Position numbers and translations under genes: made by a program
In this document: positions 2,959-53,372 of the stretch, one piece after another
Layout of the letters: every line of letters begins with the position of its first letter
Numbering within the stretch: the first letter of the stretch is position 1
The notes under the pieces: model-generated
Databases searched by the model: none
What the model saw: the letters and a program-made list of their open reading frames with translations, nothing else
What the model was told of the DNA's origin: nothing
Virus genome (UHGV): UHGV-1841366
From: a virus
Length of the DNA stretch: 54,360 bases
Strand: one strand, 5' to 3'

Positions 2959-3022
2959 GTATTGTAAGCACATACCTACGATCATAGAATAGAAAAATAA
3001 CTAATACACTACGGAGAGTGAA

Positions 3023-3418
3023 ATGACCGTTAAACGCGAAAAACTGACAGTTGATGTTTACTATGCCTCTGAAACCGCCGAAGGTAAGAATGTGGCAAAA
3101 ATTACCGTTGTTACGTACAACACCGAAACTGGTGCCGAAGTACAGGCCAGTACGATCGTGCGTAAAGGTGATGCCTCCGGCGGCGAGTACGCGACTCAAT
3201 ACCAGTCCATTCTCGATGCAACTGACCCGCTGCTGCTGAAAATCGAGAACTACTTCCGCCAGGTTGATGAAGAGGTGTTTGAAACCATGATGAATATGGT
3301 TAATTCCGTATTCACCTCCAGCCTGAACACCCGCACTACCTGGATTGGTCAGTACGGTCTGCGTATTACCTCCGGCATTCCTGCTGACACCTTAATCCCT
3401 GAAAGCGTATTCGCTTAA
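3023..3418 (+). CDS. hypothetical protein
   Basis: ORF track; ACGGAGAG upstream of the ATG; terminator downstream. Confidence 0.55.
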   Translation: MTVKREKLTVDVYYASETAEGKNVAKITVVTYNTETGAEVQASTIVRKGDASGGEYATQYQSILDATDPLLLKIENYFRQVDEEVFETMMNMVNSVFTSSLNTRTTWIGQYGLRITSGIPADTLIPESVFA

Positions 3419-3427
3419 TCCTCTTTA

Positions 3428-3455
3428 AATGGCGCGTAAACCTCGCCATTTTCTT
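3428..3455 (+). terminator. rho-independent terminator-like hairpin
   Basis: AATGGCG / CGCCATT stem followed by a T-rich run. Confidence 0.55.
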
Positions 3456-3535
3456 ATACCCGATAATAATTTGTTTTCTACCTTATCTGATTTGTGAAAA
3501 TGATTTCACTGAAGCAACTTAATAAGGAAAAAATC

Positions 3536-3910
3536 ATGGGACTTGATATCTACATCGAGACGCAGCCAAAAAACGATCTGAATAACGATACATCCAGATG
3601 GCAGGTTGGCTACTTCCGCAAGTTCAATGCGCTTGTATCGTGGGTGGAGAATAACGTTGGTATGGTTGAGAACTGTGAACTTGTGGAGCTTAACCGTGAG
3701 CATTTGCTGAAGCTGAAAGCAGACCTGGATTGTCTCAATAAAGAAAATTGCAGTGAAATAATGCCCACAATGGAAGGATTCTTTTTCGGCAGTCAGGAGT
3801 ACGACGACTTCTACTGGAGAGACGTGGATGAACTGAGAGAACTCACGGAACAGCTGATAGAGAATCACGATTTCGACAATAACAGACTGACGTTCTGCGC
3901 CTGGTGGTAA
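3536..3910 (+). CDS. hypothetical protein
   Basis: In-frame ATG (MGLDIYIE) of ORF 3494..3910 preceded by AAGGAAAAAA; the start at 3494 has no ribosome-binding site. Confidence 0.5.
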   Translation: MGLDIYIETQPKNDLNNDTSRWQVGYFRKFNALVSWVENNVGMVENCELVELNREHLLKLKADLDCLNKENCSEIMPTMEGFFFGSQEYDDFYWRDVDELRELTEQLIENHDFDNNRLTFCAWW

Positions 3911-3912
3911 AT

Positions 3913-4056
3913 ATGGGCGATTTCAAGAAAACCCTGAAGGAAAGAACCGAAATGGTCAGAAAGCAAAACGCCTCTTCTGTCATCAGATACGCAAGGCAGT
4001 TCAGCAAAAACAACAGACAGATTGAAGAGCAAATCAAATCAGTCATAGTCAGATAA
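3913..4056 (+). CDS. hypothetical small protein (47 aa)
   Basis: Not in the ORF track; ATG 3 nt after the previous stop, hand-translated to TAA at 4054-4056, followed by a strong terminator. Confidence 0.4.
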   Translation: MGDFKKTLKERTEMVRKQNASSVIRYARQFSKNNRQIEEQIKSVIVR

Positions 4057-4061
4057 GAAAC

Positions 4062-4104
4062 AGCGCCAGAAAAGCCAACGGGAGCGATTCTGGCGCTTTT
4101 TTTG
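4062..4104 (+). terminator. rho-independent terminator
   Basis: 9-bp stem AGCGCCAGA / TCTGGCGCT followed by TTTTTTT. Confidence 0.7.
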
Positions 4105-4221
4105 TTCTGGTGACAGGATTACTCCTGTCAGGGCTGTTTCTTTTGTTACAGACGCTATCATGAAGACAAAAAGAGAAGGAAGATCACTGATAGGTCTGGG
4201 AGTTACTTCAGTTTTAAAAAT

Positions 4222-4278
4222 GCCTGCTTCCGTATATATAAATAATAAGTAACTTAATAAATATATACGGAAGCAGGC
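4222..4278. repeat. long AT-rich-loop hairpin, copy A of three
   Basis: GCCTGCTTCCGTATATAT ... ATATATACGGAAGCAGGC; near-identical copies at 19067-19122 and 47623-47669. Confidence 0.7.
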
Positions 4279-6034: not shown

Positions 6035-6039
6035 CAAAC

Positions 6040-6070: not shown

Positions 6071-6077
6071 TGCTCTC

Positions 6078-10423: not shown

Positions 10424-10987
10424 TTAAAATGGAAGGATTCGGTCAACCCAATCGAAGAGAACAATCATTCTTGCATGTTCCCTGATTTTCATCGTCACCT
10501 GACAAGCATCAACGCCTAACGACACTCCCTCTATTTCACGGCCATCCGCCATGTAGACCCTTATAGATCTGCCGTTTTGATGAGCTTTGCGACATATCTT
10601 AAAAAAGTCACGACGTGATGGCTGGTTGTTCACGTAGTCAGGATGTACGGTAAGCCTGTCCGCAAAGTCCCCATCTACTTCTGGAGGTATAATCGTTTCT
10701 ATAGAGCTAACTTTCCCAAGAGGAAGACGAACTCGACGCTCTTTGCTTCTTGGAACGGGTGATAGATCAAGTTTGTTGCGTGATGGTAGTGTTCCCTGTA
10801 CATACATGTTGAATACCTGTCCATCTTCCATCGTGACTTTTACAGGAACAGAGTGTGCCCTCCAGAACATCAAGGTATGTTCCACATTAGAATAGTCTCG
10901 CGGCCATACTTCAGCCGGTATGCCGTATGTAATATCTTTCGTCGTCATATCATTATAAAGTGGTTGGCAATATGTCCATTGTACCAT
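10424..10987 (-). CDS. hypothetical protein
   Basis: ORF track, 187 aa; overlaps the upstream lipoprotein gene by 35 nt, so the true start may be the internal ATG at 10948; no clear ribosome-binding site for either. Confidence 0.4.
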   Translation of the reverse strand: MVQWTYCQPLYNDMTTKDITYGIPAEVWPRDYSNVEHTLMFWRAHSVPVKVTMEDGQVFNMYVQGTLPSRNKLDLSPVPRSKERRVRLPLGKVSSIETIIPPEVDGDFADRLTVHPDYVNNQPSRRDFFKICRKAHQNGRSIRVYMADGREIEGVSLGVDACQVTMKIREHARMIVLFDWVDRILPF

Positions 10988-13945: not shown

Positions 13946-14224
13946 TTACGGCAACCTGCTCAGTATTTCCTCCAGATCTTCTTTGGTCATATTAGAGTTC
14001 TCATAAATACGCATAATTTTCTCACGAGTCTTAGCAGAGACTCCAACGGCAGATGAAACTTTGTCAAATTCAGCCATTGTCATTGTCTCCAGAATGGCAT
14101 TGATAACTTCAGCCTTAGACATTTTGATATTTTTTTCTTTTAGTTTCACTTGAAACTTTCCAAGTTTGTCATTGGCCTTATCCGACAATGACACCTGACA
14201 ATAAGTTGTTTTCTTTTCGCTCAT
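13946..14224 (-). CDS. hypothetical small protein
   Basis: ORF track, 92 aa; stop-start tightly coupled to the helicase gene (2-nt gap). Confidence 0.45.
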   Translation of the reverse strand: MSEKKTTYCQVSLSDKANDKLGKFQVKLKEKNIKMSKAEVINAILETMTMAEFDKVSSAVGVSAKTREKIMRIYENSNMTKEDLEEILSRLP

Positions 14225-14226: not shown

Positions 14227-15786
14227 CTAATCTCGTTTCAGAACTCCAAAATCGAATGTGCCATCAATTGGCAATACACCTTCTGCAAAGCCAGGTGTGG
14301 TGTCGATGATGTGTTTTCGCTCATAAGAGTGAGACAACAGGTATTTGTTGCTAATGTCAATGAAATCAGTGATAAAACACACGTTTGCCTGATTTTTTTT
14401 TGCTCGTAAGCCACGACCGACACGCTGTCTCATTTCAACTTCTGCTTTCCCACCACCAGCAAGAATGACCGCGCCCACGCTTGGCACATCAACACCGACA
14501 TCCAGAATAGTCGAGCCTATTAAAACATCTATTTCGCCAGACGCTAAACTGTTCAGCTTTGCTTGCCTTGTCGTCTGGTTCGATTCCCCATAGATGAAGT
14601 CAACTCTAAGGCCGGACTCTTTCATCATCTCCATCAGGATTTGCCCGTGGCGTTTAAGACGAACCAGAGTCATGCAGTTGAGAGAATGTTGCTTATAGAG
14701 CAATGCTTCTCGTACTATGGCCTCGTTTCGTCCCAAATTATACACGATCCCCAACTGATAAGCTTTTTGGTAGGCAGTGCTCATACCTACCCTAAAATTG
14801 AGGTGTTTGTTGGCAAGTTCTGCCTTGATTCTGACCTCGTCTGGTTTGTAGGCAACTTTATGATAAAGGAAATATGGCTTTGCCAGAATACCTCTATCAA
14901 TCAGGTATTTTTCTGTAACTTTAATTTCAATTCGCCCGGCCACAGCCATCAGACGCATGTTGGCTTCTGTAGAAGCCTTCATGAACGGCGTTGCCGTAAG
15001 CGCCAGGCGATAGTCTGCGTTCGTACATAATCTGGCAATGTCATAGAAATTAGAGCCTGAAGACTCATGCGCCTCTTCCAGAATAAGAAGAGAGACACTT
15101 GAAAGGAAGCGCTTCACTAACTCCTGACGTTTGAGGTGGTAGCTCTTCTTATCTGGTGTTGCATCGCGTGGTGGTTCTTCGAGGAAACTTGCAATAGTTT
15201 GAACTGTAGCGACGTTGATATGTCGTGATACCTGAAACTCACCCGAGCCAATGATTCCAACCTTTTGGTCTTTTAACCACGGTTCGCCATTTTTGGCGCG
15301 GTAGTCGATGGATCTCTGGAAGTTTTCGGCCATCTGAAACATCAGAACAGATCGGGTTGTTAAAAATAATGTCATTCGACCGATACGTGCAGCTGCTTTG
15401 CAGGCAACGTTAGATTTCCCACCACCAGTAGCGATCTGCGCAATCATCATTCCCTCGCGAACCAGTGTTTCCACAGTCTGATCCTGATACGCATAATCAG
15501 GATTGTATGGGAATGGGTTAACCGCCGGATTTGGCTTTCCAAGCGCCGGGGCTTTGTCTTTGCGGATATGAACACATTTGATGCCCGCCTTGTTCAAGTT
15601 CGCCGCTACAGGCTTGGCAAAGCCAGCAGGGAACGAGTTTTTACTCCAGTGGAACATCGTGCTTGTGCCCTTCCAGTCGCCAGTGTCGACTTCGTAGCTC
15701 AACATCTGTTGCACCAGTTGCTTTACCTTGTCATCTGCGCCAGAAATAAGCGCATTTACTGCGTTAGATACAATCCGAACAGTCAT
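14227..15786 (-). CDS. SF2 DEAD/DEAH-type helicase
   Basis: 519 aa; Walker A ATGGGKS, motif II LEEAH, motif III LTATP, motif VI QRVGRGLR. Confidence 0.65.
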   Translation of the reverse strand: MTVRIVSNAVNALISGADDKVKQLVQQMLSYEVDTGDWKGTSTMFHWSKNSFPAGFAKPVAANLNKAGIKCVHIRKDKAPALGKPNPAVNPFPYNPDYAYQDQTVETLVREGMMIAQIATGGGKSNVACKAAARIGRMTLFLTTRSVLMFQMAENFQRSIDYRAKNGEPWLKDQKVGIIGSGEFQVSRHINVATVQTIASFLEEPPRDATPDKKSYHLKRQELVKRFLSSVSLLILEEAHESSGSNFYDIARLCTNADYRLALTATPFMKASTEANMRLMAVAGRIEIKVTEKYLIDRGILAKPYFLYHKVAYKPDEVRIKAELANKHLNFRVGMSTAYQKAYQLGIVYNLGRNEAIVREALLYKQHSLNCMTLVRLKRHGQILMEMMKESGLRVDFIYGESNQTTRQAKLNSLASGEIDVLIGSTILDVGVDVPSVGAVILAGGGKAEVEMRQRVGRGLRAKKNQANVCFITDFIDISNKYLLSHSYERKHIIDTTPGFAEGVLPIDGTFDFGVLKRD

Positions 15787-15868
15787 AAACCTCTTTCCTT
15801 AGTGCCTTTTGTATGTTATTTGGCTATTATAATAAGTAAGCAATTACTTAGTGGATTGTAGCAATAAA

Positions 15869-16549
15869 ATGGATGTAAAAATTACGATTTTGCAGGTTGA
15901 TGTTGCCAACCTTCGCCCGAATACCTGGAACACCAATTCGGTTGGTGCGCAGAATTTTGAAAAACTGAAAGGTTCTATCGAAAAATTAGGCTTTTTTAAA
16001 CCAATTTTGGCTCGTGAAATTGAAGATGGATTTTTTGAAATCCTCGGTGGCGAACATCGCTGGCGTGCCGCTATTGAGCAAGGAATTTCAACGGTTCCAG
16101 TGCTTTCTGTGGGCAAAATTAGCGATGTCGTAGCTAAACAGATGTCACTGGTGGACAACGAGCGATATGGTGAAGACGACCAAATCGCATTGCAACGCTT
16201 CATTGAAGAAATTCAGTCAGAACTTGACTATCAACTGTCTGAAATCGCCCCGTATGACGACGAAATCTCGATGGTTTTAGCAAAAGAGGCGGCAATCGAC
16301 CTTGAAGCACTGGAGGCGTTGTCTCGTGGTAGTGATGAGCCTGTCGATACCGACAAACGAGAGAAAACCGAACGTGTGGGGGCGGAACATCAGACCATGC
16401 GCTTCAAAGTAACTTTCGATGCGTCAGATCGTGTTGCAGAAACCATAAAAAACATCATCAAAGAGCAGGCTATTAACACCGGTAATGAAATGGAGAACGC
16501 TGGTGAGGCTCTGGTGTGGCTGGTCGACTACTACAAGGAGCGTATGTAA
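15869..16549 (+). CDS. ParB/Srx-like nuclease-domain protein 1
   Basis: GGEHRWRAA resembles the ParB GxxRxxA box; start taken at the first in-frame ATG (15851 is GTG); neither start has a strong ribosome-binding site. Confidence 0.55.
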   Translation: MDVKITILQVDVANLRPNTWNTNSVGAQNFEKLKGSIEKLGFFKPILAREIEDGFFEILGGEHRWRAAIEQGISTVPVLSVGKISDVVAKQMSLVDNERYGEDDQIALQRFIEEIQSELDYQLSEIAPYDDEISMVLAKEAAIDLEALEALSRGSDEPVDTDKREKTERVGAEHQTMRFKVTFDASDRVAETIKNIIKEQAINTGNEMENAGEALVWLVDYYKERM

Positions 16550-17217
16550 TGACCAAAAAGTTTGAAATCGTATATCGCGACCCGGCAGATCTTATTCCCT
16601 ATGAGATGAATGCCAAAAAGCATGATGAACAGCAGATCCGAGATCTGGCCGCAGCCATTAAAAAGCGCGGATTTGACCAGCCAATTACGGTCGATAAGAA
16701 CGACGTAATTATTACTGGCCACGGCCGCCGTGAGGCTGCAATTTTTGCTGGACTTGAGCGCGTACCGGTTATTGTTCGCGATGATCTCAGTGATGACGAG
16801 GTTCGTGCGAAGCGCCTTGAAGATAACCGACTTGCCAGCATTGATTACGATGCAATTAAGCTACAGAAAGAGCTTGAGTCGCTTGTTCTGGACGATATCG
16901 AGGTTTTCGGCTTTGAAGAGCGTGAGTTGAATGTTCTCGTTGGCAGCATGACAGAAGAAATGGACACCGACTCGCTAGTTATCGATCTGGGCGAAGAAAC
17001 TAAACGACAGAAGGATGAACACACCGAGATCAGTCGTGAAGTTGCAGCGGAAGAAGTACGTGTTGTCGACGTATTGGGCTTTAAAACGCTCCCTGCTGGC
17101 TCTGCCATTGTTGTTGGTGATTTGCTTGCCCACATGGAAGAAATGACGAGAGAAAGCGGGGTAGACGCATTTGTGGCATATGCGGAGAAGATCTCTTCCG
17201 GGGAGATGGCTGCATGA
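16550..17217 (+). CDS. ParB/Srx-like nuclease-domain protein 2
   Basis: ITGHGRREAA motif; ATG directly after the upstream TAA, with AGGAGCG ribosome-binding site. Confidence 0.55.
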
Positions 17218-19066: not shown

Positions 19067-19122
19067 CCTGCTTCTGTATATATAAATAATAAGTAACTTA
19101 ATAAATATATACGGAAGCAGGC
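19067..19122. repeat. long AT-rich-loop hairpin, copy B
   Basis: CCTGCTTCTGTATATATAAATAATAAGTAACTTAATAAATATATACGGAAGCAGG; one stem mismatch relative to copy A. Confidence 0.7.
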
Positions 19123-19185
19123 TTAATAAGACATGCCCAGATTCAATTAAACACACCAGTAAACAAGTTGGTTAATAGATGCAGT

Positions 19186-19871: not shown

Positions 19872-21127
19872 TGGCAATCCCGTCCTCGCTCAGTCTTGTG
19901 CAACTGCATTCTGGACAGATGAAAGTCTTCCAGTCTCCGCATCGATTTAAAGTTGTTTGTGCTGGTCGACGCTGGGGAAAATCCCGGTTGTCGATCTCCA
20001 CTATTATTCGTGCGGCGGCAAAGGAAAAAAAGCAAAGGGTCTGGTATGTCGCTCCTACTTACCAGATGGCTCGCCAGATTTTGTGGGACGATCTACAGGA
20101 AATTCTGCCCCGTAAGTGGGTTAGGAAAAAGAACGACACCACGATGACAATCGTGTTGAAGAACGGTTCGGAGATCGCCCTCAAAGGTGCTGATAAGCCT
20201 GACACTCTGCGCGGCGTAGCGTTGCATTTTGTAGTGCTTGATGAATTTCAGGATATGAAGGCTGACACCTGGTACAAGGTGTTACGACCTACTCTTTCAT
20301 CGACACGCGGCGGTGCACTGATTATTGGTACGCCAAAAGGCTTCTCGGAATTTCACAAACTGTGGACTATAGGCCAGAACGTAGAGCTGCAAAGAAAGGG
20401 ACAGTGGAAGAGCTGGCAGTTTGTAACTGCTGATTCTCCGTTTGTGCCTACGGCGGAAATTGAAGCTGCTAAGAACGATATGGACCCTAAATCGTTCGCT
20501 CAGGAGTACCTGGCCAGCTTTGAAAATATGTCCGGGCGCGTTTACTACCCGTTCGATCGAAACGTGCATGTTAAACCGCTTCAGTTCAACCCTCGGTTGC
20601 CTATATGGGTAGGACAGGACTTTAACATTGACCCGATGTCTTCCGTAATTTTGCAACCTCAGCCAAATGGTGAGCTATGGGCAATTGATGAATTGGTGCT
20701 CTTTTCTTCTAACACGGCAGAAGTTTGTGATGAGCTTGAGAGGCGCTTCTGGCGCTGGAAATCACAGGTAACGGTATTTCCAGATCCGGCAGGTGCTTAT
20801 CGCCAACATGCTCGCGGGGAGTCTGACGTAGACATATTCAAAGAGAAGGGATTCTTACGTGTCGATTATTCGAAAAAGCACCCGCCAATTGCGGATCGTG
20901 TTAATGCTGTTAACCGAATGCTGATGACCGCATCTGGAGATATCCGGCTGTATATCGATCCGAAGTGCAAGCATTTGATTGATTCACTGGAAAAGGTCAT
21001 CTACAAGCCTGGAACACGAGATATGGATAAGACAGGTGGCATTGAGCATAGTGCAGACGCATTGGGCTATCCAGTACATCGTAGGTATCCAGTCAAAAAC
21101 CGTGTTATTCTTGGTGGTTCTCGATAG
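19871..21127 (+). CDS. terminase large subunit
   Basis: 418 aa; Walker A-like VVCAGRRWGKS near the N-terminus, acidic nuclease-like C-terminal half; position ahead of portal. Confidence 0.75.
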   Translation: MAIPSSLSLVQLHSGQMKVFQSPHRFKVVCAGRRWGKSRLSISTIIRAAAKEKKQRVWYVAPTYQMARQILWDDLQEILPRKWVRKKNDTTMTIVLKNGSEIALKGADKPDTLRGVALHFVVLDEFQDMKADTWYKVLRPTLSSTRGGALIIGTPKGFSEFHKLWTIGQNVELQRKGQWKSWQFVTADSPFVPTAEIEAAKNDMDPKSFAQEYLASFENMSGRVYYPFDRNVHVKPLQFNPRLPIWVGQDFNIDPMSSVILQPQPNGELWAIDELVLFSSNTAEVCDELERRFWRWKSQVTVFPDPAGAYRQHARGESDVDIFKEKGFLRVDYSKKHPPIADRVNAVNRMLMTASGDIRLYIDPKCKHLIDSLEKVIYKPGTRDMDKTGGIEHSADALGYPVHRRYPVKNRVILGGSR

Positions 21128-21144
21128 GTAAGTAATTATCTAGG
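21123..21144. promoter_or_regulatory. GATAGGTAAGTAATTATCTAGG motif
   Basis: Member of the TAGGTAA-N4-TTACCTA-like family; 10 nt upstream of the portal start. Confidence 0.45.
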
Positions 21145-24544: not shown

Positions 24545-24553
24545 TCAATGTGG

Positions 24554-24572
24554 TAGGTAAGTAATTACCTAT
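24554..24572. promoter_or_regulatory. near-palindrome TAGGTAA-GTAA-TTACCTA
   Basis: 7-bp perfectly inverted arms with 4-bp spacer, between the capsid stop and the terminator. Confidence 0.45.
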
Positions 24573-24576
24573 GTTA

Positions 24577-24606
24577 AAGGGTGGGCTATACGCCCACCCT
24601 TTTTGT
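24577..24606 (+). terminator. rho-independent terminator
   Basis: 8-bp stem GGGTGGGC / GCCCACCC with 5-nt loop followed by TTTTTGT. Confidence 0.75.
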
Positions 24607-27478: not shown

Positions 27479-27862
27479 GTGTTTATCGAAGCGTTTGCAA
27501 GTTTGATGCAGAAGGCAAAGATTGGCACGGTCGGGACTGACATTTTCTGTCACTACTTGCCTGCCAATGTGAAATCTGGCGTCCTGCTTATTAACCCAAA
27601 TACCGGCATCAGCATCGATCATGAGCTACAGGGCTTTTATCACGAATCATTCACAATCATTGTGCGTGGTTCATCAGTAACCACGACGGTTGATAAGGCC
27701 AATAAAATCATTGAGATGTTTCCAGTAGAGGAAACGGAATCTGGTGGTGTTTATTTTCGACTTGTACGACCGATGGCGATGCCAATCATTTATCCCAAAA
27801 ATGATGGGGCATTAATAGAAGCAGGCATTCCTGTTGAATTTGCTGGCTATTTATTGAATTAA
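27479..27862 (+). CDS. putative tail-associated protein
   Basis: GTG start directly after the upstream TAA, with GAGAGG ribosome-binding site; in frame with ORF 27356..27862. Confidence 0.4.
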   Translation: MFIEAFASLMQKAKIGTVGTDIFCHYLPANVKSGVLLINPNTGISIDHELQGFYHESFTIIVRGSSVTTTVDKANKIIEMFPVEETESGGVYFRLVRPMAMPIIYPKNDGALIEAGIPVEFAGYLLN

Positions 27863-34365: not shown

Positions 34366-34447
34366 CTATCTGGATAAGTAAGTTCTAATTTACTATTATT
34401 ATGGCGCTGACAGGATGTTAGCGCCTACTTATTTCAAGGATGAAACA

Positions 34448-35936: not shown

Positions 35937-36517
35937 TTCATGTGCAGCTTGGCGGCCCTATGGCCAAACATTTTGGCCGCCACTGGCATCTAAAGGTACG
36001 CAATACAAAACAGGCTCTGGATTTAATTGAGGCCAACAAGCCTGGGTTTAAGGCATGGATGAAGCGCAATATCAAAACCTATGACAGATACCACATCCAG
36101 ATCACCAATAAACAGGGCCACAAGTGGTCTGTGGACGAGAGTGAATATCAGATGATGGGGCAGTCTGACAACATTGCCAAAATCCGCATTACCCCTGTTC
36201 CGCGAGGAAGTGGTGGATCTGCCTTTGGGTGGTTTCAGACGATTGTGGGGGCCACTTTATTGGTGGCATCTTTTTTTGGCTTGCCCGCTCTTGCGCCTCT
36301 CGGTTTGTCACTGATGATGGGCGGTATAGCGCAAATCATATCTCCGCAAGCCACTAACGAAAGTGTGAGGCAGGCGGATAACTCGAACTCTTATTACTTC
36401 GATGGGCCTCAAAACACAACAAACCAGGGGAACCCTGTACAGCTTATCTATGGCGAGGAAATTTTAGTTGGCTCACAGGTCGTGAGTTCTTCTATCACCA
36501 TCGACCAGCTAATGTAA
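35924..36517 (+). CDS. tail assembly protein I-like
   Basis: GTG start after GGGAG; hydrophobic central segment; position between K-like and J-like genes. Confidence 0.5.
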   Translation: MSELVHVQLGGPMAKHFGRHWHLKVRNTKQALDLIEANKPGFKAWMKRNIKTYDRYHIQITNKQGHKWSVDESEYQMMGQSDNIAKIRITPVPRGSGGSAFGWFQTIVGATLLVASFFGLPALAPLGLSLMMGGIAQIISPQATNESVRQADNSNSYYFDGPQNTTNQGNPVQLIYGEEILVGSQVVSSSITIDQLM

Positions 36518-36534
36518 TCAAGGATTTTTTGGAC

Positions 36535-39500
36535 ATGGAACAGTTCAAGCAAAAAAAATTACCGCTTCTTATTGGCGGCGCTGGTGGTAAAAAAAGTAGC
36601 AAAAGCTCCAGCCGTACTCCGGTTGAAGCTGACGATACCGTGAATTCTCGTGCAATGGCCGCTATCCTCGATCTTCTTGGGGAAGGGGTAATTGGCGGCT
36701 TAGTAAATGGCGCAAGATCTATTTTTGTCGACGATTTACCGATTGTAAATGAAGACGGCTCCTCCAATTTTAGCGGAATTACTTGGGATTTTCGCGACGG
36801 TTCACAAGACCAGACTCCAATGTCCGGCTTTGATTTCGTTGAAACACCCAAATCCGTCAATATTCAATTAAAAAAAACACATTATGTAACGGTTTCAATC
36901 GATAACGATGAAGCTGATCGTGTTCGTGTCATCATGAAGTTTCCTTCTTTGCGAAGCGTAGATAAAAAAACTGGTGACACGAACGGCACGACTGTTGAGT
37001 ACAAGTTCCAGATAGCGAATGGCGACTCAACATTTGTAGATGTGGTTGCAGAAGGTGAAAAAAGCGTTGGCATTAAGCTAACTGCAAAGAAGACAGGTGT
37101 TTATTACCGTAGTTATGAACTGAAGTTACCTAAGCCTGGGCGCGCGTATAAGGTGCGTGTTGTCCGTATTACCGATGACAACAACAGTCAGTATCTCTAT
37201 AACGACACATGGGTAGACTCAATAGGTGAGATTGTTGATACACCGATGAACTACCCAAACTCTGTGCTGGTGGGGTTGAAGGTTAATTCTGAGCAGTTTG
37301 GCAACTCTATGCCATCTCGTTCGTATTTGGTGCGAGGATTAAAAATTCGTGTGCCGTCAAACTACAACGAATCCAGCAACACTTATGTGGGCGTATGGGA
37401 TGGCACTTTTAAGCTGCTGTCTTCTTCGAACCCTGCGTGGATTCTCTTTGATTTGCTTACCAATGCTCGATATGGTCTTGGGCAATTCGTGTCGGAATCC
37501 ATGATTGACCTTGGCCAACTGTACCAGATTGGTCGATATTGTGACGAAGAGGTCGATGATGGCTTTGGGGGTAAAGAGAAACGCTTTGCAATCAATACGC
37601 AGATCACCAGTCGACAGGACGCATACCGATTAATTCAGGATATTGCCGGTGCATTCCGCGGCATGGTGTTTTGGGCTGGTGGCATGGTTAACATCATGCA
37701 GGATAGCCCATCAGATCCGGTAATGATGTTTACTAACTCCAACGTCAAAGATGGATTGTTTTCCTATAAAGGTTCTGCACGTAAAGATCGTCCATCAGTT
37801 GCGCTCGTGACTTATAACAACAAGGAGGACGGTTATAAGCAAAATATCGAGTACGTCGAAGATCAGGAAGCAATGCGCCGTTATGGTGAGCGCAAAACAG
37901 AAGTCGTAGCATTTGGCTGTACAAGTCGAGGACAGGCTCACCGAGTTGGTTTGTGGCTTTTGTATACCGCCAGAATGGAGTCGGATGTAATTACATTTAC
38001 TGCCGGTTTAGACGCCTCATTTCTGATGCCTGGTGAAACCGTTCTGATTCAGAATAAATATCGCGCGGACAAACGTAACTCCGGTCGAATTATGGAGTTT
38101 ACCAAAAACAGCATCACTCTCGATGCGCCTGTGTCGTTAACTAAAAGCGGCAGCTTTATTCGGATACTGAATCAGGAAGGCAAAATCGTTGAACGCGATG
38201 TTCTTGAAACTGGCGAAAACATAACAAAGGTTACGTTTTCAAAAGCCCTGACGTCAGCGGAAACGCCTGTTTTGAGCGGTGTCTGGACAATTACAGAACC
38301 AGATCTCGAACCTATGCGCGTTCGCATCGTTAACATCGCGCAGGGGGAAACGCCGGGTAGCTTTGACATCACCGCTGTTGAGAACAATCCGACTAAATAT
38401 GAGGCGATCGACAATGGTGCAACGCTTATCCCGCAGAATACGACGGTATTGGACCCGACTTACTCGAAGCCGTCTAATTTGCAAATCACTGAAGGGACTT
38501 ATCTCTCAAGTCCGGGCAACCTGTCAGTAAAATTGACTGCAACATGGGAAGGAAAATCTCCAGAATATTGGATCAGCTGGCGACGTTCAGATGAAAGCAA
38601 TGTATCGAACTGGCAATCGGCGCGTGTAACCGAAGAGCAATACGAAATCGTTAATGTTGCGGAGAATGGACGCTACGACTTCCAGCTGTATGCGGTTTCA
38701 TTCAACGGTAAAAAAACAGAGATCATCAGCACCGTTTATCAGGTGCAGGGCACAATGACTCCACCTGATTCGCCAACGTCATTAACGGCAGTTGGGGACT
38801 ATCGAAATGTGATACTGAATTGGATTAATCCAGATTCGGTGGACCTTGATCATATTAATGTTTACGCATCCAAGGTTAACAATCTGGATACAGCGAAACT
38901 GATCGCAGAGTCTGCAAGCACCACCTTTACACATGCTGGTCTTGGGGATAACGAAACGTGGTATTACTGGGTGCGAGCATCGAACAAGCGCGGCATGTTA
39001 AGCCCTCCGAACTCAAACTTGGGTACAGAGGCGACAACTCGCGATGTATTGTCGTTCCTGACTGGCAAAATTACATCTTCCGAGCTTGGTCAGGCCTTGA
39101 CTGAGGAAATTAGCTCAAAAGCCTCTCAGGAGGCGGTGAACTCCATCTATGAACAGATTGATGAAAGCCTGAAGAACCTTGATGGCAAGTTTTCAGAGAC
39201 AGATCGGCGGCTTGAAGAAGCTCAAAACGATCTTAAAACGGAGGTTTCCAGCACCGTCAGCAAGGTAGAAGACGCTCTTAAAGAGGTTGAAGACTCTAAC
39301 GCTGCTTTAATTCAGCTACAGGAGACTGTCTCCGAGCAGGGCAAGGCTGTGGCTGGTGCAGTCGAAGCGGCCCATGCTGCGTTCGAAAATGCTTCTGCAT
39401 TGATTGCCGAAGAACGTGAGGCTCGAGTAGAAGGAGATATGGCTAACGCTAAACAGATTGAGACAATGAAATCTTCTGTTGACGATAGTGTTGCGGCAGT

Positions 39501-40695: not shown

Positions 40696-40788
40696 TAGTA
40701 GAAAAAAAAATTTATATCGGTAAAAATAAGTAGGTATTTACTTTGTGGTGGGCAAGAATAGCCCACCAAAACAAGGAGCATATTCAAC

Positions 40789-43691: not shown

Positions 43692-43997
43692 TAAAAAGGC
43701 CCGCACACAAGGTGCGGGCAAATGATCGCGTAATATACTCAACAATTAGCTCTGTAATTATACAGATTCTTAATAGCGACAGAACTATTTAATGCGCTCG
43801 GATTCGTTTTTAGTTGAAGTAATATTAAACACCCTGAAATATCGTATAAGTTACTCGAAGGGGTTCATTAGAATCCATTCAATGCTTTCTCGGCAGTGCT
43901 TTGAAACGATAATGGATAAGTAAGCACATACCTACAATGAAAGTGTGATATGTGATATAAATCCGCCATCCCGATTTGACTTTTCATGGAGGAAAAC

Positions 43998-46246: not shown

Positions 46247-46434
46247 GTATTCCTCCTGATGGCCGTGATGTAGGAAGGCCATCAATCTCCTCTGTTCAAA
46301 CTGAGGTTTCGACTCAAAAATTACTTTAAAAGGCTATAGCCCATTACGTGTGCATTATCAAATTGTGTACGGCATATCACCGTACTTGTAATATAGAGGT
46401 CATTGTTACTTTTTTCAACAGACAAATACAAGCT

Positions 46435-46456
46435 GTGATTGCCAATTGTTAATCAC
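46435..46456. promoter_or_regulatory. operator-like inverted repeat GTGATT-N10-AATCAC
   Basis: In the 318-bp divergent region between ataR and parA; a second inverted repeat GTACGG-N8-CCGTAC lies at 46369-46390. Confidence 0.35.
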
Positions 46457-46516
46457 AACCTACCATTTAACCTTTACACCGCAGCCGTAGGCATTTAGGC
46501 TATATCACATATAAGA

Positions 46517-46564: not shown

Positions 46565-47233
46565 ATGACCAAGATCTTTGTGGTTGGCGGCACAAAGGGC
46601 GGGCCTGGCAAATCCACCGTTGCCCAGCAAATTGCCGTTTGCCTGAAAGTCAAAAAGAAGAAGAAGGTTTATATCACTGATATAGATATTCAGCGCACGA
46701 CAACAAGCTGGTGTGAAGACCGTCGACAGAACGAAGACCTTGAGCTGATTCCTTTTGCATACGTTCAGGATGACATCATTAAGCACCTAAAATCACTTCA
46801 GGGTAGAGCTGAGTTTGTAGTGGTAGATGCTGGTGGCTTTGACTCCGAAATTCAGCGACAAGCGATGCTGATGGCTGACGTTATCATTATCCCGCTTCGT
46901 CCTAAGCGTCGTGATTTGAAATCTCTGCGTGACATCGATCCTATTATCGACAATGTTCGTAATGTAAACGATAAAGTGAAGGTCCGCGCGGTCATGAACC
47001 AGTGCCCGGCTTTGCCATCACAAGTGTCTCGCATTCTGGCGGCTAAAGAGATTGTCGAGACGTTTGGCATCGAGTCTGCGCCTGTCAATCTATATAACCG
47101 CAACGTCTACGATGATGCGGAAGAGTCTGGTCGTTCTATCTTTGAAATGACCGGTAGCGAGCGCGACAAAAAGGCGGAAGCCGAGTTTGAAGAATTTGTA
47201 GATTATCTGTTGAGTCTGGAGGAAGAAGAATAA
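46565..47233 (+). CDS. parA: ParA-family partition ATPase (small, type Ib-like)
   Basis: 222 aa; deviant Walker A GGTKGGPGKST; no N-terminal DNA-binding extension. Confidence 0.75.
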   Translation: MTKIFVVGGTKGGPGKSTVAQQIAVCLKVKKKKKVYITDIDIQRTTTSWCEDRRQNEDLELIPFAYVQDDIIKHLKSLQGRAEFVVVDAGGFDSEIQRQAMLMADVIIIPLRPKRRDLKSLRDIDPIIDNVRNVNDKVKVRAVMNQCPALPSQVSRILAAKEIVETFGIESAPVNLYNRNVYDDAEESGRSIFEMTGSERDKKAEAEFEEFVDYLLSLEEEE

Positions 47234-47592
47234 TGTCCATGAAAATGGGTGACCTAGCAAAGCGCAAAGAGCCTGATGCACCGGCTAAGAACACAACTCC
47301 TTTGCGCCAACCAGTCAGACCACAGGGACGCCCGACTCGTGGCAAAGAGAAAATTAAAAGCCGCACAATGTCACTGGAAGACGAATACTTCGAACTGCTG
47401 GAGATGATGAAGTTCATCCCTCGTTTCGAGAAGTTCACCCGTTCTGACGTGATTCGAGCAGCTATTTTCCATCTGGCAGAGAAGTCACCGCAGGAAATCG
47501 AGGACATCGTGAAACTTAACGAGGCGATCACAGCTGCCGACGTTACTATGCGTACCGATGAAATCAAGCGAGAACTCATGAAAAAAGGCTGA
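47233..47592 (+). CDS. ParG-like small centromere-binding protein (putative)
   Basis: 119 aa translationally coupled to parA (TAATG); basic disordered N-terminus and short C-terminal helical region. Confidence 0.5.
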   Translation: MSMKMGDLAKRKEPDAPAKNTTPLRQPVRPQGRPTRGKEKIKSRTMSLEDEYFELLEMMKFIPRFEKFTRSDVIRAAIFHLAEKSPQEIEDIVKLNEAITAADVTMRTDEIKRELMKKG

Positions 47593-47622: not shown

Positions 47623-47669
47623 CCTGTTTCTGTATATAAATAATAAGTAACTTATTAAATATATATATA
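47623..47669. repeat. long AT-rich-loop hairpin, copy C
   Basis: CCTGTTTCTGTATATAAATAATAAGTAACTTATTAAATATATATATACGGAAGCAGG; shorter and more diverged than A and B. Confidence 0.65.
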
Positions 47670-47763
47670 CGGAAGCAGGTCTTTTAAAAGACACCCACCA
47701 GAACAACTCCCTTCCGTTTTCACTTCCAAAAACTGACACCAGTCGCTATCATCTGCTCATTGT

Positions 47764-47785
47764 GATAAGTAAGTAACTACCTACC
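47764..47785. promoter_or_regulatory. GATAAGTAAGTAACTACCTACC motif
   Basis: Member of the TAAGTAA/TACCTA motif family; 12 nt upstream of the ATG at 47797. Confidence 0.45.
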
Positions 47786-51184: not shown

Positions 51185-51260
51185 AATCGCACCTTTAAAA
51201 TAAGTAGATAGTCACTTATCTTTCTGTAAGAATAGTTTCATCTGTTAGCTAGGAGTTGGT

Positions 51261-52043
51261 ATGAAAGACGAAATTCAGAAATTAGCTTGCGACATCATTG
51301 ATAAAACTGGTTTAGAAATCAGCGAGAGTAACCGGCTAGACATTATTGAAAAAGCCGTCAATACAGCAATGGATCATATTGCCACTCGTTTAGTCGATAT
51401 CCCGCTACCAGGACTACCTTATCTGAAAGTTGAGTTACGCGTATGGGGCGAATCTTCTGATGCACGGCGTTCTGCATTGGTTGTTTTTATTAGCAAAGAA
51501 AACATACAAGCTCTAAAAGTGCAGGTTGGGGCATGGTTTGATGGTAGGGTTATCTACACTGATACTCTCATTTGTCCTTCAGGTGATGAGCATATTGAAG
51601 CCACTATTCGAGAATCAATTCGGGCTATGCGCAACTTGTCTTTGCTGAAAGACAAGCCTAACTATGAAAATTACTTGCTATCAACAAAATCTGAACCAGC
51701 ATTGTCGCTGAAAGCCGATTTTGTGACCCCGGCTAACTTGCTAGAAGTTTTGATCAATAAAGGGGCGAAGAATGCCGTAAATGTAATCAGAGAGAGTGAA
51801 TATGCATCTCTTTGCGACATGTGCAAAAGCCAGTTGGATCTGGTGCATATCGTTATTGATGCTGGGAAGGCATGTGATGGCGTAATGGCGGAATTTGCTG
51901 GGAAGATGGTCAGGATTGCTAACGAATTACCGATGATAGAGCAAGAGGCTAAATCATACGCCACCAATCATGTCACAGAGCTTCTTGTCCCCTATCGCTT
52001 AGAAAGCAATCAGCGCAAGATGATTAGCTGGGGAAGTTGGTAA
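51261..52043 (+). CDS. hypothetical protein
   Basis: ORF track, 260 aa; AGGAG ribosome-binding site. Confidence 0.5.
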   Translation: MKDEIQKLACDIIDKTGLEISESNRLDIIEKAVNTAMDHIATRLVDIPLPGLPYLKVELRVWGESSDARRSALVVFISKENIQALKVQVGAWFDGRVIYTDTLICPSGDEHIEATIRESIRAMRNLSLLKDKPNYENYLLSTKSEPALSLKADFVTPANLLEVLINKGAKNAVNVIRESEYASLCDMCKSQLDLVHIVIDAGKACDGVMAEFAGKMVRIANELPMIEQEAKSYATNHVTELLVPYRLESNQRKMISWGSW

Positions 52044-52100
52044 TCTCTCCGAGCGTCGTTTCTTTTACGCAAACAATGATAGGTAAGTACAAGGTTATTT

Positions 52101-52583
52101 ATGGCGATAGTTGTGAAAGCTGATTTGTCAAAAATCCCCTCTATTTCAGGAAATAATGGTTATTCACTTCGTTGTGAGGAAGTAAAGATAAACGGTGAGT
52201 CGGCATATTGCAGTTACTCCGTTTGCCAGCATACCATTCTTGCCTTCAAAGAAAACCGTCTTCCTCGAACTTCATTCCAGTCGTGCGCAACCGCTATCAA
52301 AGCAGGCAAATGCAAGGCGTTAAAAATGATGGTTGGAGAGATTCGTAAAGGAGAATCTCTGTATTTCGAAGATATGACCGCGCTCATTAAGGAGGTTGAA
52401 GAACGGAATAAACAAGCCAGAACTATAAAACGAAAACGTGACAGTGTAACGATTAATAGCATGGTTAAGAAGAGCACCACATCACAAACAGCGATCACTG
52501 ACGTGTATGCGGCGTTGCTTGAAGAAACAACAAAAGAAACACATGAGCAAATCGATCAACATATGGAGGCAAAACAACAATGA
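52101..52583 (+). CDS. hypothetical protein
   Basis: ORF track, 160 aa; four cysteines (C25, C37, C42, C62) could form a metal site. Confidence 0.45.
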   Translation: MAIVVKADLSKIPSISGNNGYSLRCEEVKINGESAYCSYSVCQHTILAFKENRLPRTSFQSCATAIKAGKCKALKMMVGEIRKGESLYFEDMTALIKEVEERNKQARTIKRKRDSVTINSMVKKSTTSQTAITDVYAALLEETTKETHEQIDQHMEAKQQ

Positions 52584-52756
52584 AAAAGTTGATCGCACTT
52601 AAGCATAAGCTGGACGAAATGAAAGCTATGGGAACCAATGCAAAAAAAGAGGCATTGGCCAACATGGATGACTTCGAGCAAAGCATGGTTTCATTGATGC
52701 TCAACCCTTTCATTCGTTTTGGGGTAAAGAAATACAAAGTGACCGGAGTTCCCTGA
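52580..52756 (+). CDS. hypothetical small protein (58 aa)
   Basis: Not in the ORF track; ATGA overlap with the upstream stop; hand-translated to TGA at 52754-52756. Confidence 0.35.
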   Translation: MKKLIALKHKLDEMKAMGTNAKKEALANMDDFEQSMVSLMLNPFIRFGVKKYKVTGVP

Positions 52757-52900
52757 GTACTGGAAGCCTAAAACGCGAGCTAAGTTAGAGCGTTTAGGGT
52801 TGGTTGCAAACGTTTCTGAAACGAAGTGTTCGGCCAACTACCAGTTAACTGATAAAGGGAAAGTATTGCTACAGCAATTAGTAGAATCAGGAGTGTTAAA

Positions 52901-53053
52901 ATGATTCCATACATCTCATTAGCTTTTATGGCGGGCTTCCTTATCGGCTTCGGCATCTGTCGTGACTTAATTAAGCAGGAACTTAAAACCAAAACACTGT
53001 GCATCGGAAAGCGTGTGTATCGAGTAGTTCATGAAACAAAGGTTAGAAAATGA
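52901..53053 (+). CDS. hypothetical small membrane protein (50 aa)
   Basis: Not in the ORF track; CAGGAGTG ribosome-binding site; hydrophobic N-terminus; stop overlaps the next start. Confidence 0.4.
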   Translation: MIPYISLAFMAGFLIGFGICRDLIKQELKTKTLCIGKRVYRVVHETKVRK

Positions 53054-53340
53054 GCAATTTAACTTCTTGGGAATGGTGGTTGGTCACCTATTTCTTAGCG
53101 GCCGGAGTCGCATTCGCCTTTTACGTAGGTCAGTTAGTCGTAAAACTGCTGCTGATGAAATTTGCCAGTCATAAACGTATCGATGATGGTCTGTGGCGTC
53201 TTGGCACCCTGGTGGAAACTCGCTACGGGCAACTTAAGGAGAACGAAACCATTACTATCCAAGCGAAACGATTCACTGCCACCATCACAAGAACACCTGA
53301 TCGTAGAGTGGCCTTGATCAAAAAAGTCACAACCGAATAA
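53050..53340 (+). CDS. hypothetical membrane protein
   Basis: ORF track, 96 aa; N-terminal hydrophobic helix (WWLVTYFLAAGVAFAFYVGQLVV). Confidence 0.45.
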   Translation: MSNLTSWEWWLVTYFLAAGVAFAFYVGQLVVKLLLMKFASHKRIDDGLWRLGTLVETRYGQLKENETITIQAKRFTATITRTPDRRVALIKKVTTE

Positions 53341-53349
53341 AAACACGAC

Positions 53350-53372
53350 GATAAGTATTTACTTACCTATCC
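53350..53372. promoter_or_regulatory. GATAAGTATTTACTTACCTATCC motif
   Basis: Member of the TAAGTA/TACCTA motif family at the start of the long non-coding stretch before the tRNAs. Confidence 0.4.

Follow-up and report, generated by a model that had tools for sequence, protein, structure and literature searches.

The window analysed here, a stretch of 54,360 nucleotides, is half of an E. coli phage-plasmid of the SSU5/pHCM2 type. It carries a UvsW-like helicase operon, a ParB-like/terminase operon, genes for portal, capsid and tail proteins, a lysis cassette, a helicase/primase cluster and a tRNA cluster, and copies of a palindromic sequence (Table 1). About 850 plasmid records matched SSU5/pHCM2-like phage-plasmids. 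Such elements are common in E. coli, Klebsiella, Salmonella, Enterobacter and Yersinia, and resistance genes are also carried by them.

The earlier note described an intergenic motif, GATAAGTAAGTA...TACCTA, with copies at ten positions. A copy is present at each of them and the motif is real, although its two parts cover the left arm and a portion of the right arm of a single 22-bp palindrome, in which RATARGTAAGT is directly followed by ACTTACYTATY. The near-palindromic character noted for the copy at 24554 is correct and extends to the whole family; several Klebsiella copies are perfectly palindromic, e.g. AATAGGTAAGTACTTACCTATT. Sites were called by a symmetric position matrix with a threshold of 14 bits, using 20 Markov shuffles of the window as a control. 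Twelve sites in the window score at least 14 bits and none does in any of the shuffles. Together with the weaker copy at 2960 the window total is 13, including three copies that had been overlooked (15831, 22630 and 51199). We found no paper mentioning the palindrome.

Allowing up to three mismatches, the 16-mer GTAAGCACATACCTAC has six matches in the window, compared with 0.19 expected. Two occurrences of this 16-mer 41 kb apart, at 2964–2979 and 43920–43935, are identical as reported, but they do not represent a separate duplication. Their flanks differ immediately beyond the 16-mer, and the column frequencies of the family predict 0.37 identical pairs for 13 sites; the pair is explained by the membership of both copies in the palindrome family.

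Table 1. Palindrome copies in the window, their surroundings and associated promoter-like elements. Conservation refers to the window, Cyrano, SSU5 and pJN2-26 (four genomes).
Position	Sequence	Surroundings	Promoter-like elements and conservation
2960–2981	TATTGTAAGCACATACCTACGA	Weak copy directly after a terminator hairpin; core and right arm well matched, with −35-like TTGTAA in place of the left outer arm	Overlaps promoter TTGTAA (2962)-17-TAGAAT (2990); core and −35/−10 spacing kept in Cyrano, SSU5 and pJN2-26
15831–15852	AATAAGTAAGCAATTACTTAGT	64-bp divergent region between the UvsW-like helicase operon (14227–15786, minus strand) and the ParB-like/terminase operon (plus strand)	−10-like TATTAT/TATAAT abuts the left edge
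21123–21144	GATAGGTAAGTAATTATCTAGG	Includes the large-terminase stop codon; ends 9 nt before the portal start codon	
22630–22651	AATAAGTCAGCACTTACTTATG	Within the 3′ end of the portal gene	Occupies the spacer of TTGAAA-17-TATGAT (22625–22653); copy kept in all four genomes
24552–24573	GGTAGGTAAGTAATTACCTATG	8 nt past the major capsid protein stop codon; just upstream of intrinsic terminator 24579–24603	Counterpart in pJN2-26 is a perfect palindrome
27866–27887	AATTGGTAAGTATATACTTACT		Centre supplies the −10 (TATACT) of TTGAAT-18-TATACT (27854–27883)
34373–34394	GATAAGTAAGTTCTAATTTACT	8 nt past the minor tail protein M stop codon, followed by GC-rich hairpin 34403–34425; right arm degenerate	
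40725–40746	AATAAGTAGGTATTTACTTTGT	Follows the tail host-specificity (J-like) gene and precedes a hairpin and the tail-fibre gene	
43915–43936	GATAAGTAAGCACATACCTACA	Upstream of the lysis cassette	Extended −10 TGATATAAA (43953–43961) begins 17 nt downstream in all four genomes; TATAAA hexamer at +20
47764–47785	GATAAGTAAGTAACTACCTACC	ATG of the first helicase/primase-cluster gene follows after 11 nt	Conserved TATCAT/TATGAT 15–20 nt upstream
51199–51220	AATAAGTAGATAGTCACTTATC		Followed by extended −10 TGTAAGAAT (51225–51233)
52078–52099	GATAGGTAAGTACAAGGTTATT	Ends 1 nt before start codon 52101; left arm good, right arm replaced	
53350–53371	GATAAGTATTTACTTACCTATC	Top-scoring copy in the window (28.6 bits); conserved leader and tRNA cluster downstream	−10-like TATAAG (53379–53384) downstream

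Complete relatives, represented by E. coli, Salmonella and Klebsiella elements, contain 20–23 sites each, often at orthologous (syntenic) junctions. In Cyrano, 21 of the 22 sites are intergenic, though 87% of the genome is coding (P ~ 6e-18), and the accessory and maintenance regions at 38–52 kb and 85–105 kb contain none. The consensus is constant in all enterobacterial lineages and in one relative at 25–55% protein identity. At only ~50% protein identity, the relative L037 has a site at the terminase–portal junction (13979).

What is conserved at the sites is sequence rather than pairing. Watson–Crick pairs between the arms number 499, compared with 500.9 expected (shuffle P = 0.62), while the variable pair 5–18 shows 31 such pairs against 29.6 expected, and A–C mismatches are common. 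The arms therefore vary independently, which fits two double-stranded DNA half-sites for a symmetric protein and not selection for a hairpin; the covariation between arms that characterizes a hairpin or an intrinsic terminator was not detected. It is accordingly highly improbable that the sites act in RNA, as a hairpin involved in processing, stability, translational control or weak termination, although all of them are transcribed within polycistronic units between stop and start codons and T-rich sequence follows many of them. A possible reader of such a hairpin would be the FljA-like, putatively RNA-binding protein encoded at 10424–10987, a member of a family present in the core of these elements; Salmonella FljA acts on fliC mRNA. 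Complementary pairs are, however, no more frequent than independent arms predict, and some copies lie upstream of the −10 of their promoter, hence outside that transcript.

A promoter scan recovered the sigma-70-like arrangement that the earlier note had pointed out at 2962–2990. The remark that this arrangement is not repeated at other copies is also correct, but promoters that accompany other copies in different registers had gone unseen. In general, the sites either stand between cistrons or overlap conserved sigma-70-type promoters, with registers that vary. Promoter-like hexamers overlapping them fall into at least five different registers, and a sigma-70 promoter is not the repeated unit. 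The palindrome can be found over the −35 (2962–2990 and 51199), in the spacer (22625–22653), with its centre as the −10 (27854–27883, and TTTACA-17-TAGTAT at Cyrano 59398), 20 nt upstream of an extended −10 (43915), or downstream of a −10 (47764). Kept in all four genomes are the promoters at 2962–2990, 22625–22653 and 27854–27883, and the extended −10s after 43915 and 51199. Promoter overlap could in part be a by-product of very short intergenic spaces. Between a promoter and a factor-binding role, left undecided before, the second is supported by the dyad, the independence of its arms, intergenic synteny and the lack of a fixed −35/−10 register; the motif itself is not a promoter.

Variable position with respect to promoter elements is tolerated by repressors and generally not by activators. 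We consider it unlikely that the palindrome serves as the recognition sequence for a class of promoters that depend on an activator, comparable to T4 MotA-box promoters or to P1 late promoters, which combine an inverted repeat at −22 with a −10 and are activated by Lpa. The centre, AAGTACTT, resembles the annotated P1 −22 box AAGT(G/T)ACTT, but this box contains one more central base and stands at a constant distance from the −10. The P1-type combination of a 9-bp repeat located 4 nt from the −10 with an Lpa-like activator was not found, the centre here being 8 bp long and its distance variable. In 41 of 62 sites the right end forms a TAnnnT hexamer (TATCAT/TATCTT), and most sites of the family lack a good −35; the flanking AT/AT extension is symmetric, however, so TATCAT is probably part of the dyad. 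Cyrano transcripts jump directly past sites 9017, 57445 and 59398 (partial induction in macrophages), and expression in macrophages also rises at the site orthologous to 27866 from 5.98 (CYRAN_11) to 8.49 log2 (CYRAN_12). Against activation, the distance to −10 elements conserved across genomes is not fixed, and several sites lie across the −10 or the start of sigma-70 promoters that are otherwise good and have spacers of the optimal 17–18 bp. Others lie directly upstream of intrinsic terminators or 0–11 nt from a start codon, where there is no room for a promoter. Furthermore, early (replication) and late (structural) genes share the same element, and no Lpa homologue was found.

On balance, the palindrome family appears to be a multi-copy operator of the element's own XRE/CI-type repressor, which would keep lytic genes silent. 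The gene of this repressor is located outside the window, adjoining the integrase gene (CYRAN_45 in phage Cyrano); it is expressed in lysogens, and the repressor is present in about 865 related plasmids. Its promoter, TTTACA-16-TAATAT, is followed by the core GGTAAGYACTTACC at the predicted transcription start, an arrangement kept in five plasmid lineages and 78 viral contigs. Protein identity is only 56–66%, yet the recognition helix hardly varies. In an Acinetobacter relative, with 14 sites in 40 kb of which 13 are intergenic, the same architecture has a TCAG core replacing TAAG, and the recognition helix of the XRE homologue differs; operator core and recognition helix thus change together between lineages. 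Three sites are found in the 600 bp upstream of this homologue, and a fourth just past the divergent gene. Location and co-variation make the XRE protein the most likely binder, and we infer both its binding and the repression that would follow. Alternative element-encoded binders are possible, such as a 92-aa ribbon-helix-helix-like protein (13946–14224), highly expressed in lysogens, or small winged-helix-like proteins.

In the plasmid-prophage state, the repressor would occupy about 22 sites across replication, recombination, nucleotide-metabolism, structural and lysis modules, acting as a symmetric oligomer that recognises the dyad in double-stranded form. Sites over the −35, spacer, −10 or start of a sigma-70 promoter would block RNA polymerase. 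Those between cistrons, which follow a stop codon or closely precede a start codon, would present a roadblock to read-through from interspersed plasmid-maintenance genes. Autoregulation may result from the weaker core copy, which lies where the repressor's own promoter is predicted to initiate transcription.

RNA-seq of LF82 lysogens places 20 of 22 genes that follow a site at background, and no strongly expressed gene follows a site. As an illustration, the leftward operon at the divergent junction of 15831 is expressed, with the rightward ParB gene at the detection floor, and at the 47764 junction the par operon reaches 55–89 counts and the next gene 6.2. The Cyrano gene at the orthologue of 51199, CYRAN_34, is leaky in lysogens (43.7 counts), and expression falls from 43.7 to 8.8 at the site orthologous to 52078. 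Because the site-preceded CYRAN_34 is expressed, and because expression drops also at junctions without a site, these data are consistent with repression but not discriminating. Some features speak against an operator. The copy at the repressor promoter comprises only the inner 14 bp, whereas conservation across the dispersed sites is highest at the outer T3/A4. The constancy of the consensus across lineages is unusual, as immunity operators normally diversify. In addition, a repressor leaves unexplained the near-identity to the site of the host protein SlmA, addressed below.

By analogy, the best reading seems to be that of dispersed operators akin to mycobacteriophage stoperators or the CIRs of Streptomyces phage phiC31. 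More than ten near-identical copies, their position in short intergenic gaps of lytic operons, and a copy at the repressor control region are all present. Stoperators of L5/Bxb1, the sites of the gp71 repressor, number 20–30 copies per genome; both early and late lytic operons contain them, in the narrow spaces between genes close to stop and start codons. The repressor-controlled promoter has a related site, and prophage silencing by blocking initiation and elongation has been proposed for them. The palindrome shares their copy number, intergenic placement, site at the repressor promoter and proposed silencing role. Stoperators are, however, asymmetric, orientation-dependent and 13–14 bp long, whereas the palindrome is a symmetric 22-bp sequence from an unrelated host and phage lineage, with a candidate binder. 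Orientation does not follow transcription as in strict stoperators, since the stronger arm lies on either side in complete genomes. The phiC31 CIR is an inverted repeat bound by the c repressor, found at the repressor control region and in many intergenic copies, of which many have no obvious tie to one promoter architecture. A conserved inverted repeat at the repressor gene with scattered intergenic copies is common to both systems, but the CIR is 17 bp long, the sequence and repressor family differ, and here only the inner part is present at the repressor gene. P1 is likewise a plasmid prophage, annotated with C1 repressor operators scattered upstream of lytic functions; these are asymmetric 17-mers of unrelated sequence, and 50 kb of P1 yielded no palindrome-family site.

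The host nucleoid-occlusion factor SlmA belongs to the TetR family and antagonises FtsZ when DNA-bound. In its published 12-bp core, GTGAGTACTCAC, G, T, A and G are required at positions 1, 2, 4 and 5, position 3 accepts any purine (G to A: Kd ~60 vs 50 nM) and position 6 any pyrimidine. The 20-bp consensus is GTAAGTGAGC continued by GCTCACTTAC, with SBS17 and SBS12 among validated SlmA-binding sites (SBSs). Like SBSs, the palindrome is a dyad of 4-bp-offset GTRAGT half-sites, and its consensus matches 18/20 under the tolerance rule; the half-site ATARGTAAGT departs only at the outermost base, at position 4 and at the two tolerant positions. A rule built from the papers only retrieves six window sites at 16/20 or more (0.57 expected), three of them at 17/20 (0.03 expected). 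All six are members of the palindrome family, with scores equal to those of SBS17 (17) and SBS12 (16), and no site reaching 16/20 was found in 50 kb of phage P1. Scored in turn with the palindrome-family matrix, the SlmA consensus is outranked by only 14 positions of the window. The constancy of the motif in divergent elements would also be explained by a conserved host factor, and no TetR/SlmA homologue encoded by the element was found. An SBS inside a promoter represses a reporter, and extra plasmid-borne SBSs are toxic under SlmA overproduction. If bound by SlmA, ~22 sites per element would amount to roughly 110–120 per cell at ~5 copies, compared with 24–52 chromosomal ones; such sites could hold the division ring away from unsegregated plasmid copies, block division during lytic-cycle DNA amplification, or employ SlmA as a repressor that copy number can titrate.

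It is nevertheless doubtful, judging from base preferences and distribution, that the sites are simply SlmA-binding sites. The strict rule, GTRAGY followed by RCTYAC in both halves, is fitted by the consensus, but by no site in the window, one in Cyrano, three in SSU5 and six in pJN2-26; in most sites one half is perfect and the other matches at 4–5 of 6 positions. Inner position 3 is A in 89% of cases and G in 1%, while SlmA takes G or any purine, and outer position 4 is A in 51% and G in 44%, while the known SlmA sites seen have A. The family thus departs from SlmA preferences (G/A at 3, A at 4), and selection appears to be by a protein other than SlmA. In the Acinetobacter relative the core is GTCAGT, a non-SBS core with a pyrimidine at position 3; as far as we know, Acinetobacter probably lacks SlmA. 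Most chromosomal SBSs lie within genes (2 of 24 are intergenic), in contrast to 95% intergenic sites here, which track lytic modules and are ~20–40 times denser than on the chromosome. SSU5 grows lytically with its full set of sites, so SlmA alone cannot be a strong repressor. Finally, a similar (TAAG)n palindrome is present in marine pelagiphage-like contigs, indicating that this type of sequence can arise independently. No report of SlmA binding or ChIP at phage-plasmid sites was found in the searchable literature.

Tentatively, the repressor operator may double as, or mimic, a high-affinity SlmA site. In that case, the DNA-activated SlmA loaded by the 108-kb plasmid prophage would exceed that of the chromosome several-fold, which would couple copy number or lytic amplification to host division, and SlmA and the repressor might compete for the same sites.

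Lysis–lysogeny control in SSU5/pHCM2-like elements is essentially undescribed. With a putative operator, a candidate repressor and ~22 presumably controlled junctions mapped, its regulation would become directly testable, and immunity groups might be predicted, e.g. TAAG-type as opposed to TCAG-type. Should the likeness to SlmA sites be functional, this would be, to our knowledge, the first natural case of a mobile element with an array of nucleoid-occlusion sites, and dual use of the operator would mean plasmid-borne nucleoid occlusion, or a DNA-encoded division block in lytic growth.

The 54-kb window covers about half of a phage-plasmid from E. coli that belongs to the SSU5/pHCM2 group. Along most of the window, identity is 92-94% to phage Cyrano, the plasmid carried by E. 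coli LF82, as well as to PhiR41_1, CMS-2020a and many E. coli plasmids of ~110 kb; identity is about 80% to SSU5, a Salmonella phage, and to elements of Klebsiella such as pJN2-26. Modules present in the window are an accessory region, a leftward UvsW-helicase operon, ParB-like, terminase, head, tail and lysis genes, par genes, a helicase-primase cluster, and a tRNA cluster. The gene for an ATP-dependent DNA ligase, which in Cyrano, SSU5 and pJN2-26 follows the orthologue of the 52101-52583 gene, is absent from the window. There are 17 occurrences of Chi, GCTGGTGG, compared to ~1.1 expected, and 12 of them are on the plus strand. Features other than the palindromic sites discussed below are listed in the table.

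All ten copies of the intergenic motif listed in the earlier note are present where it had placed them, and three more, at 15831, 22630 and 51199, were disclosed by pattern and matrix scans. The observation is thus confirmed and extended. The motif pieces described previously are real, but alignment of copies, including those of SSU5 and pJN2-26, shows both to be parts of a single 22-bp palindrome, RATARGTAAGT/ACTTACYTATY (the slash marks the centre), which is perfect in some Klebsiella copies, e.g. AATAGGTAAGTACTTACCTATT. With a symmetrised matrix and a threshold of 14 bits, the window gave 12 sites, and 20 first-order Markov shuffles gave none. The copy at 2960 falls below this threshold because its left outer arm is replaced by a -35-like TTGTAA. 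The 16-mer reported as duplicated is indeed identical at 2964 and 43920, and six matches with up to three mismatches exist, against 0.19 expected. Since 0.37 identical 16-mer pairs are expected among 13 sites from the column frequencies of the family, and flanks of the two copies differ at once, the pair needs no separate explanation. Enrichment of GATAAGGC was discarded as a motif, because it represents in-frame Asp-Lys-Ala codons.

Exact matches to the core in unrelated viral contigs come from marine pelagiphage-like phages and lie outside the present system. In these contigs (L012, L014, L049, L057, L072, L080 and L083 among the compared sequences; 41% GC), AGTAAGTAAGTACTTACTTACT occupies a conserved position beside other TAAG-rich repeats, and they appear to use the same type of palindrome independently. 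No description of the palindrome was found in the literature on SSU5-like elements, as far as it could be searched.

Complete relatives carry 20-23 sites each. In Cyrano, 21 of 22 are outside coding sequences in a genome that is 87% coding (binomial P~6e-18); about half start no more than 17 nt past the stop codon of the preceding gene, and for several the distance from their end to the next start codon is 0-16 nt. Sites are found in structural, lysis, replication, recombination and nucleotide-metabolism modules, and scanning of complete relatives revealed none in accessory and maintenance regions. For most sites of the window, Cyrano, SSU5 and pJN2-26 have an orthologous copy at the corresponding junction, despite divergence of the surrounding intergenic sequence. 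Even a distant relative, whose terminase, portal and capsid proteins show only 25-55% identity, shares this core, both between the terminase and portal genes and at other places.

We have also addressed the question of whether the palindrome acts as DNA or as an RNA hairpin. Complementary pairs at mirror positions were counted in 65 sites from three genomes and compared with the expectation for independent arms. Observed and expected numbers were 499 and 500.9 (shuffle P=0.62); the variable pair 5-18 gave 31 Watson-Crick pairs against 29.6 expected, together with many A-C mismatches. Both arms are therefore held near one consensus without selection for pairing, as in a double-stranded site for a symmetric protein, and the hairpin reading is rejected. 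An Rfam search detected tRNAs only. GC-rich hairpins, located directly 3' of several palindromes, maintain pairing while their sequence changes between E. coli, Salmonella and Klebsiella elements, which points to genuine terminators or RNA stabilisers there. In addition, all four compared genomes (the window, Cyrano, SSU5 and pJN2-26) share a conserved ~30-nt block, TTGTTTTCGTTGAGACGCGACTGTTTGAAC, 3' of the 53350 site; it may be a leader or a small RNA, and three tRNA genes follow ~700 nt past it.

The arrangement of promoter elements at 2962-2990 was said not to be repeated at other copies, and the register of promoter elements relative to the sites does vary. The -35 and spacer of TTGTAA-17-TAGAAT are covered by the site at 2962-2990, an overlap kept in all four genomes with a differing spacer sequence, and at 22625-22653, as at Cyrano 57445, the site fills the spacer of TTGAAA-17-TATGAT. 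The site centre coincides with the -10 of TTGAAT-18-TATACT at 27854-27883 and of TTTACA-17-TAGTAT at Cyrano 59398. The -10 is 6-8 nt downstream of the sites at 51199 and 53350; downstream of the 43915 site, a conserved extended -10 (TGATATAAA) is present in every genome, with a TATAAA hexamer 20 nt past the site, and a conserved TATCAT precedes the 47764 site. The stop codon of terminase falls inside the 21123 copy, which ends 9 nt short of the start of portal, and terminator hairpins directly follow the copies at 24552 and 34373, so that these three cannot function as promoters. Because placement over core promoter elements varies and some copies are purely intercistronic, a repressor that occludes and roadblocks fits better than an activator. 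The choice left by the earlier note between a promoter and a factor-binding role is resolved in favour of a putative factor-binding site, one that overlaps promoters. Matches to the sigma-70 consensus across lytic modules (20001-54360) are rarer than in shuffles (16 vs 24.5; 9 vs 20.3).

Published LF82 transcriptomes (supplementary table of PMC9928086) were used to follow expression around sites. In lysogens, 20 of 22 genes following a site are at background, and none of the strongly expressed plasmid genes is preceded by one. Transitions from expressed to silent coincide with sites: from the par operon (55-89 counts) to the next gene (6.2), from CYRAN_34 (43.7) to CYRAN_35 (8.8), from CYRAN_64 (31.5) to CYRAN_65 (7.5), and between UvsW (46) on one strand and ParB, at the floor, on the other. 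In macrophages, where induction is partial, expression jumps directly past three sites. Comparable drops also occur at site-free junctions; the drop across sites was hence rejected as proof of a roadblock, and the RNA-seq data are supportive only.

The most likely candidate binder, at moderate confidence, is the XRE/CI-type repressor CYRAN_45, whose gene adjoins that of the integrase, outside the window. It is expressed in lysogens and is the master repressor in the view of the LF82 authors (PMC9928086). The XRE repressor is present in ~865 related plasmids, including NZ_CP126951.1, a close relative of the window. Its upstream region has a conserved promoter, TTTACA-16-TAATAT, directly followed, at the predicted transcription start, by the core of the palindrome, GGTAAG(C/T)ACTTACC. 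Promoter and core together are kept in 78 viral contigs and in five lineages of plasmids (E. coli, Enterobacter, Yersinia pMT1, Klebsiella), and the recognition helix GYKNANNLSLIKSGK is almost invariant, though the proteins are only 56-66% identical. The strongest, if indirect, support comes from the Acinetobacter baumannii relative NZ_CP156934.1, an element of the same kind with a changed core, AATCAGTCAGT/ACTGACTGATT. Within 40 kb it carries 14 sites, of which all but one are intergenic (13); three are within 600 bp 5' of the XRE homologue and a fourth just past the divergent gene, and the recognition helix of this homologue differs as well (GFKRPNVLSMIKSGE). SSU5, a lytic isolate, lacks the integrase/XRE-repressor module (sequences L004-L006), and its retention of sites was taken as an argument against the XRE repressor. 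This argument was withdrawn, because contigs 96-97% identical to SSU5 (L161, L163) carry the gene, making the loss recent and uninformative about the sites. Deletion of the module may account for the virulent behaviour of SSU5.

Other candidates were considered. For the ParB-like pair, considered because it might bind in the manner of KorB, detection was limited to the N-terminal domain of ParB, and the pair is silent in lysogens. The likely operator of the ParG-like protein is a different palindrome, TGTGATTGCCAATTGTTAATCACA. The FljA-like protein is encoded by a core gene of these elements, including those of non-flagellated Klebsiella, has homologues that were found solely on ~100-110-kb plasmids, and is probably RNA-binding, as by eye it looks like two tandem Sm/Hfq-like repeats; its own gene has no site. 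A 92-aa core protein is a candidate only: its gene belongs to the operon starting at the 15831 site and its orthologue CYRAN_117 is among the highest-expressed plasmid genes in lysogens (114 counts, background 9.8), with an AlphaFold model of unusably low quality (pLDDT 53) and a weak CopG comparison (E~0.01). No homologue of P1 Lpa was found.

Positions of additional features in the window and in compared sequences
Feature	Position	Strand	Remark
~55-bp palindrome	4224-4278		after accessory cluster
~55-bp palindrome	19068-19124		5' of small terminase gene
~55-bp palindrome	47624-47680		after par operon
FljA-family protein, full-length	10424-10987	minus	'repressor of phase-1 flagellin', PF03614, E=1e-70
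92-aa core protein	13946-14224	minus	N-terminal ribbon-helix-helix pattern like CopG/Arc/Mnt
ParB-like pair	15869-17217		families also known fused to methyltransferases
Palindrome TGTGATTGCCAATTGTTAATCACA	46434-46457		overlaps predicted promoter TTGCCA-16-TACCAT just 5' of parA; likely par operator or centromere-like site, distinct from 22-bp family
ParG-like protein	47233-47592		partner of ParA
GC-rich hairpins	24579-24603, 27890-27905, 34403-34425, 40747-40768		pairing kept across elements
TTGTTTTCGTTGAGACGCGACTGTTTGAAC block	within 53386-53420		
tRNA genes	54114-54360		Asn, Tyr, Thr
Ligase gene absence	52583-53050		compared with 36108-37430 of sequence L001
Chi, examples	2400, 6053, 18934, 21802, 36580, 37266, 37675		among 17 positions
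179-aa protein	L170 (Acinetobacter SSU5-like plasmid) 31399-31938		annotated 'RNA chaperone Hfq'; adjoins DnaB-like helicase gene

The palindrome also resembles the binding site of SlmA, the host cell-division regulator, which could itself be the agent of selection on the sites. The SlmA core has G, T, A and G at positions 1, 2, 4 and 5, a purine at 3 and a pyrimidine at 6, and tolerates G to A at position 3 with a Kd still ~60 nM (PMC3020112); the palindrome centre GTAAGTACTTAC follows all these rules, and the outer arms match the later 20-bp consensus GTAAGTGAGC/GCTCACTTAC (PMC4423959). A rule derived solely from these two papers recovered the family, with six window sites scoring at least 16/20 (0.57 expected) and three at 17/20 (0.03 expected). 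SBS17 and SBS12, which are validated sites on the chromosome, have scores of 17 and 16, and nothing in 50 kb of phage P1 reaches 16. Reporter expression is repressed by SlmA bound within a promoter, and additional sites on a plasmid are toxic under SlmA overproduction (PMC3573117). Against selection by SlmA, inner position 3 of the family is A in 89% and G in only 1%, G is tolerated at outer position 4, and no window site follows the strict core rule in both halves. Moreover, the family is intergenic whereas chromosomal SlmA sites are mostly intragenic, and the Acinetobacter core has a pyrimidine at position 3. In our reading, the sites would have evolved under an element-encoded protein, and better copies may still bind SlmA; dual use, in which the element's own operator also serves as a SlmA site, seems possible but rather unlikely. 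No report of SlmA sites on phages or plasmids was found in the searchable literature.

A ~55-bp near-perfect palindrome, CCTGCTTC(C/T)GTATATATAAATAATAAGTAACTTAATAAATATATACGGAAGCAGG, is present in three copies in the window and is probably the 'first' motif family of the earlier reader. Its centre, AAGTAACTT, is built like a P1 late-promoter -22 box, and it has the ATAAGT half-site in common with the 22-bp family. Functional parallels to the 22-bp family are the stoperators of mycobacteriophages, the CIRs of phiC31 and the C1 operators scattered over P1. Members of the family are not strict stoperators, because they are symmetric and without orientation, nor P1-type late promoters, because the distance to the -10 is not fixed and no Lpa homologue was found. 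The palindrome system would be a further instance of the dispersed-operator kind already known, with a potentially important likeness to the host SlmA site.
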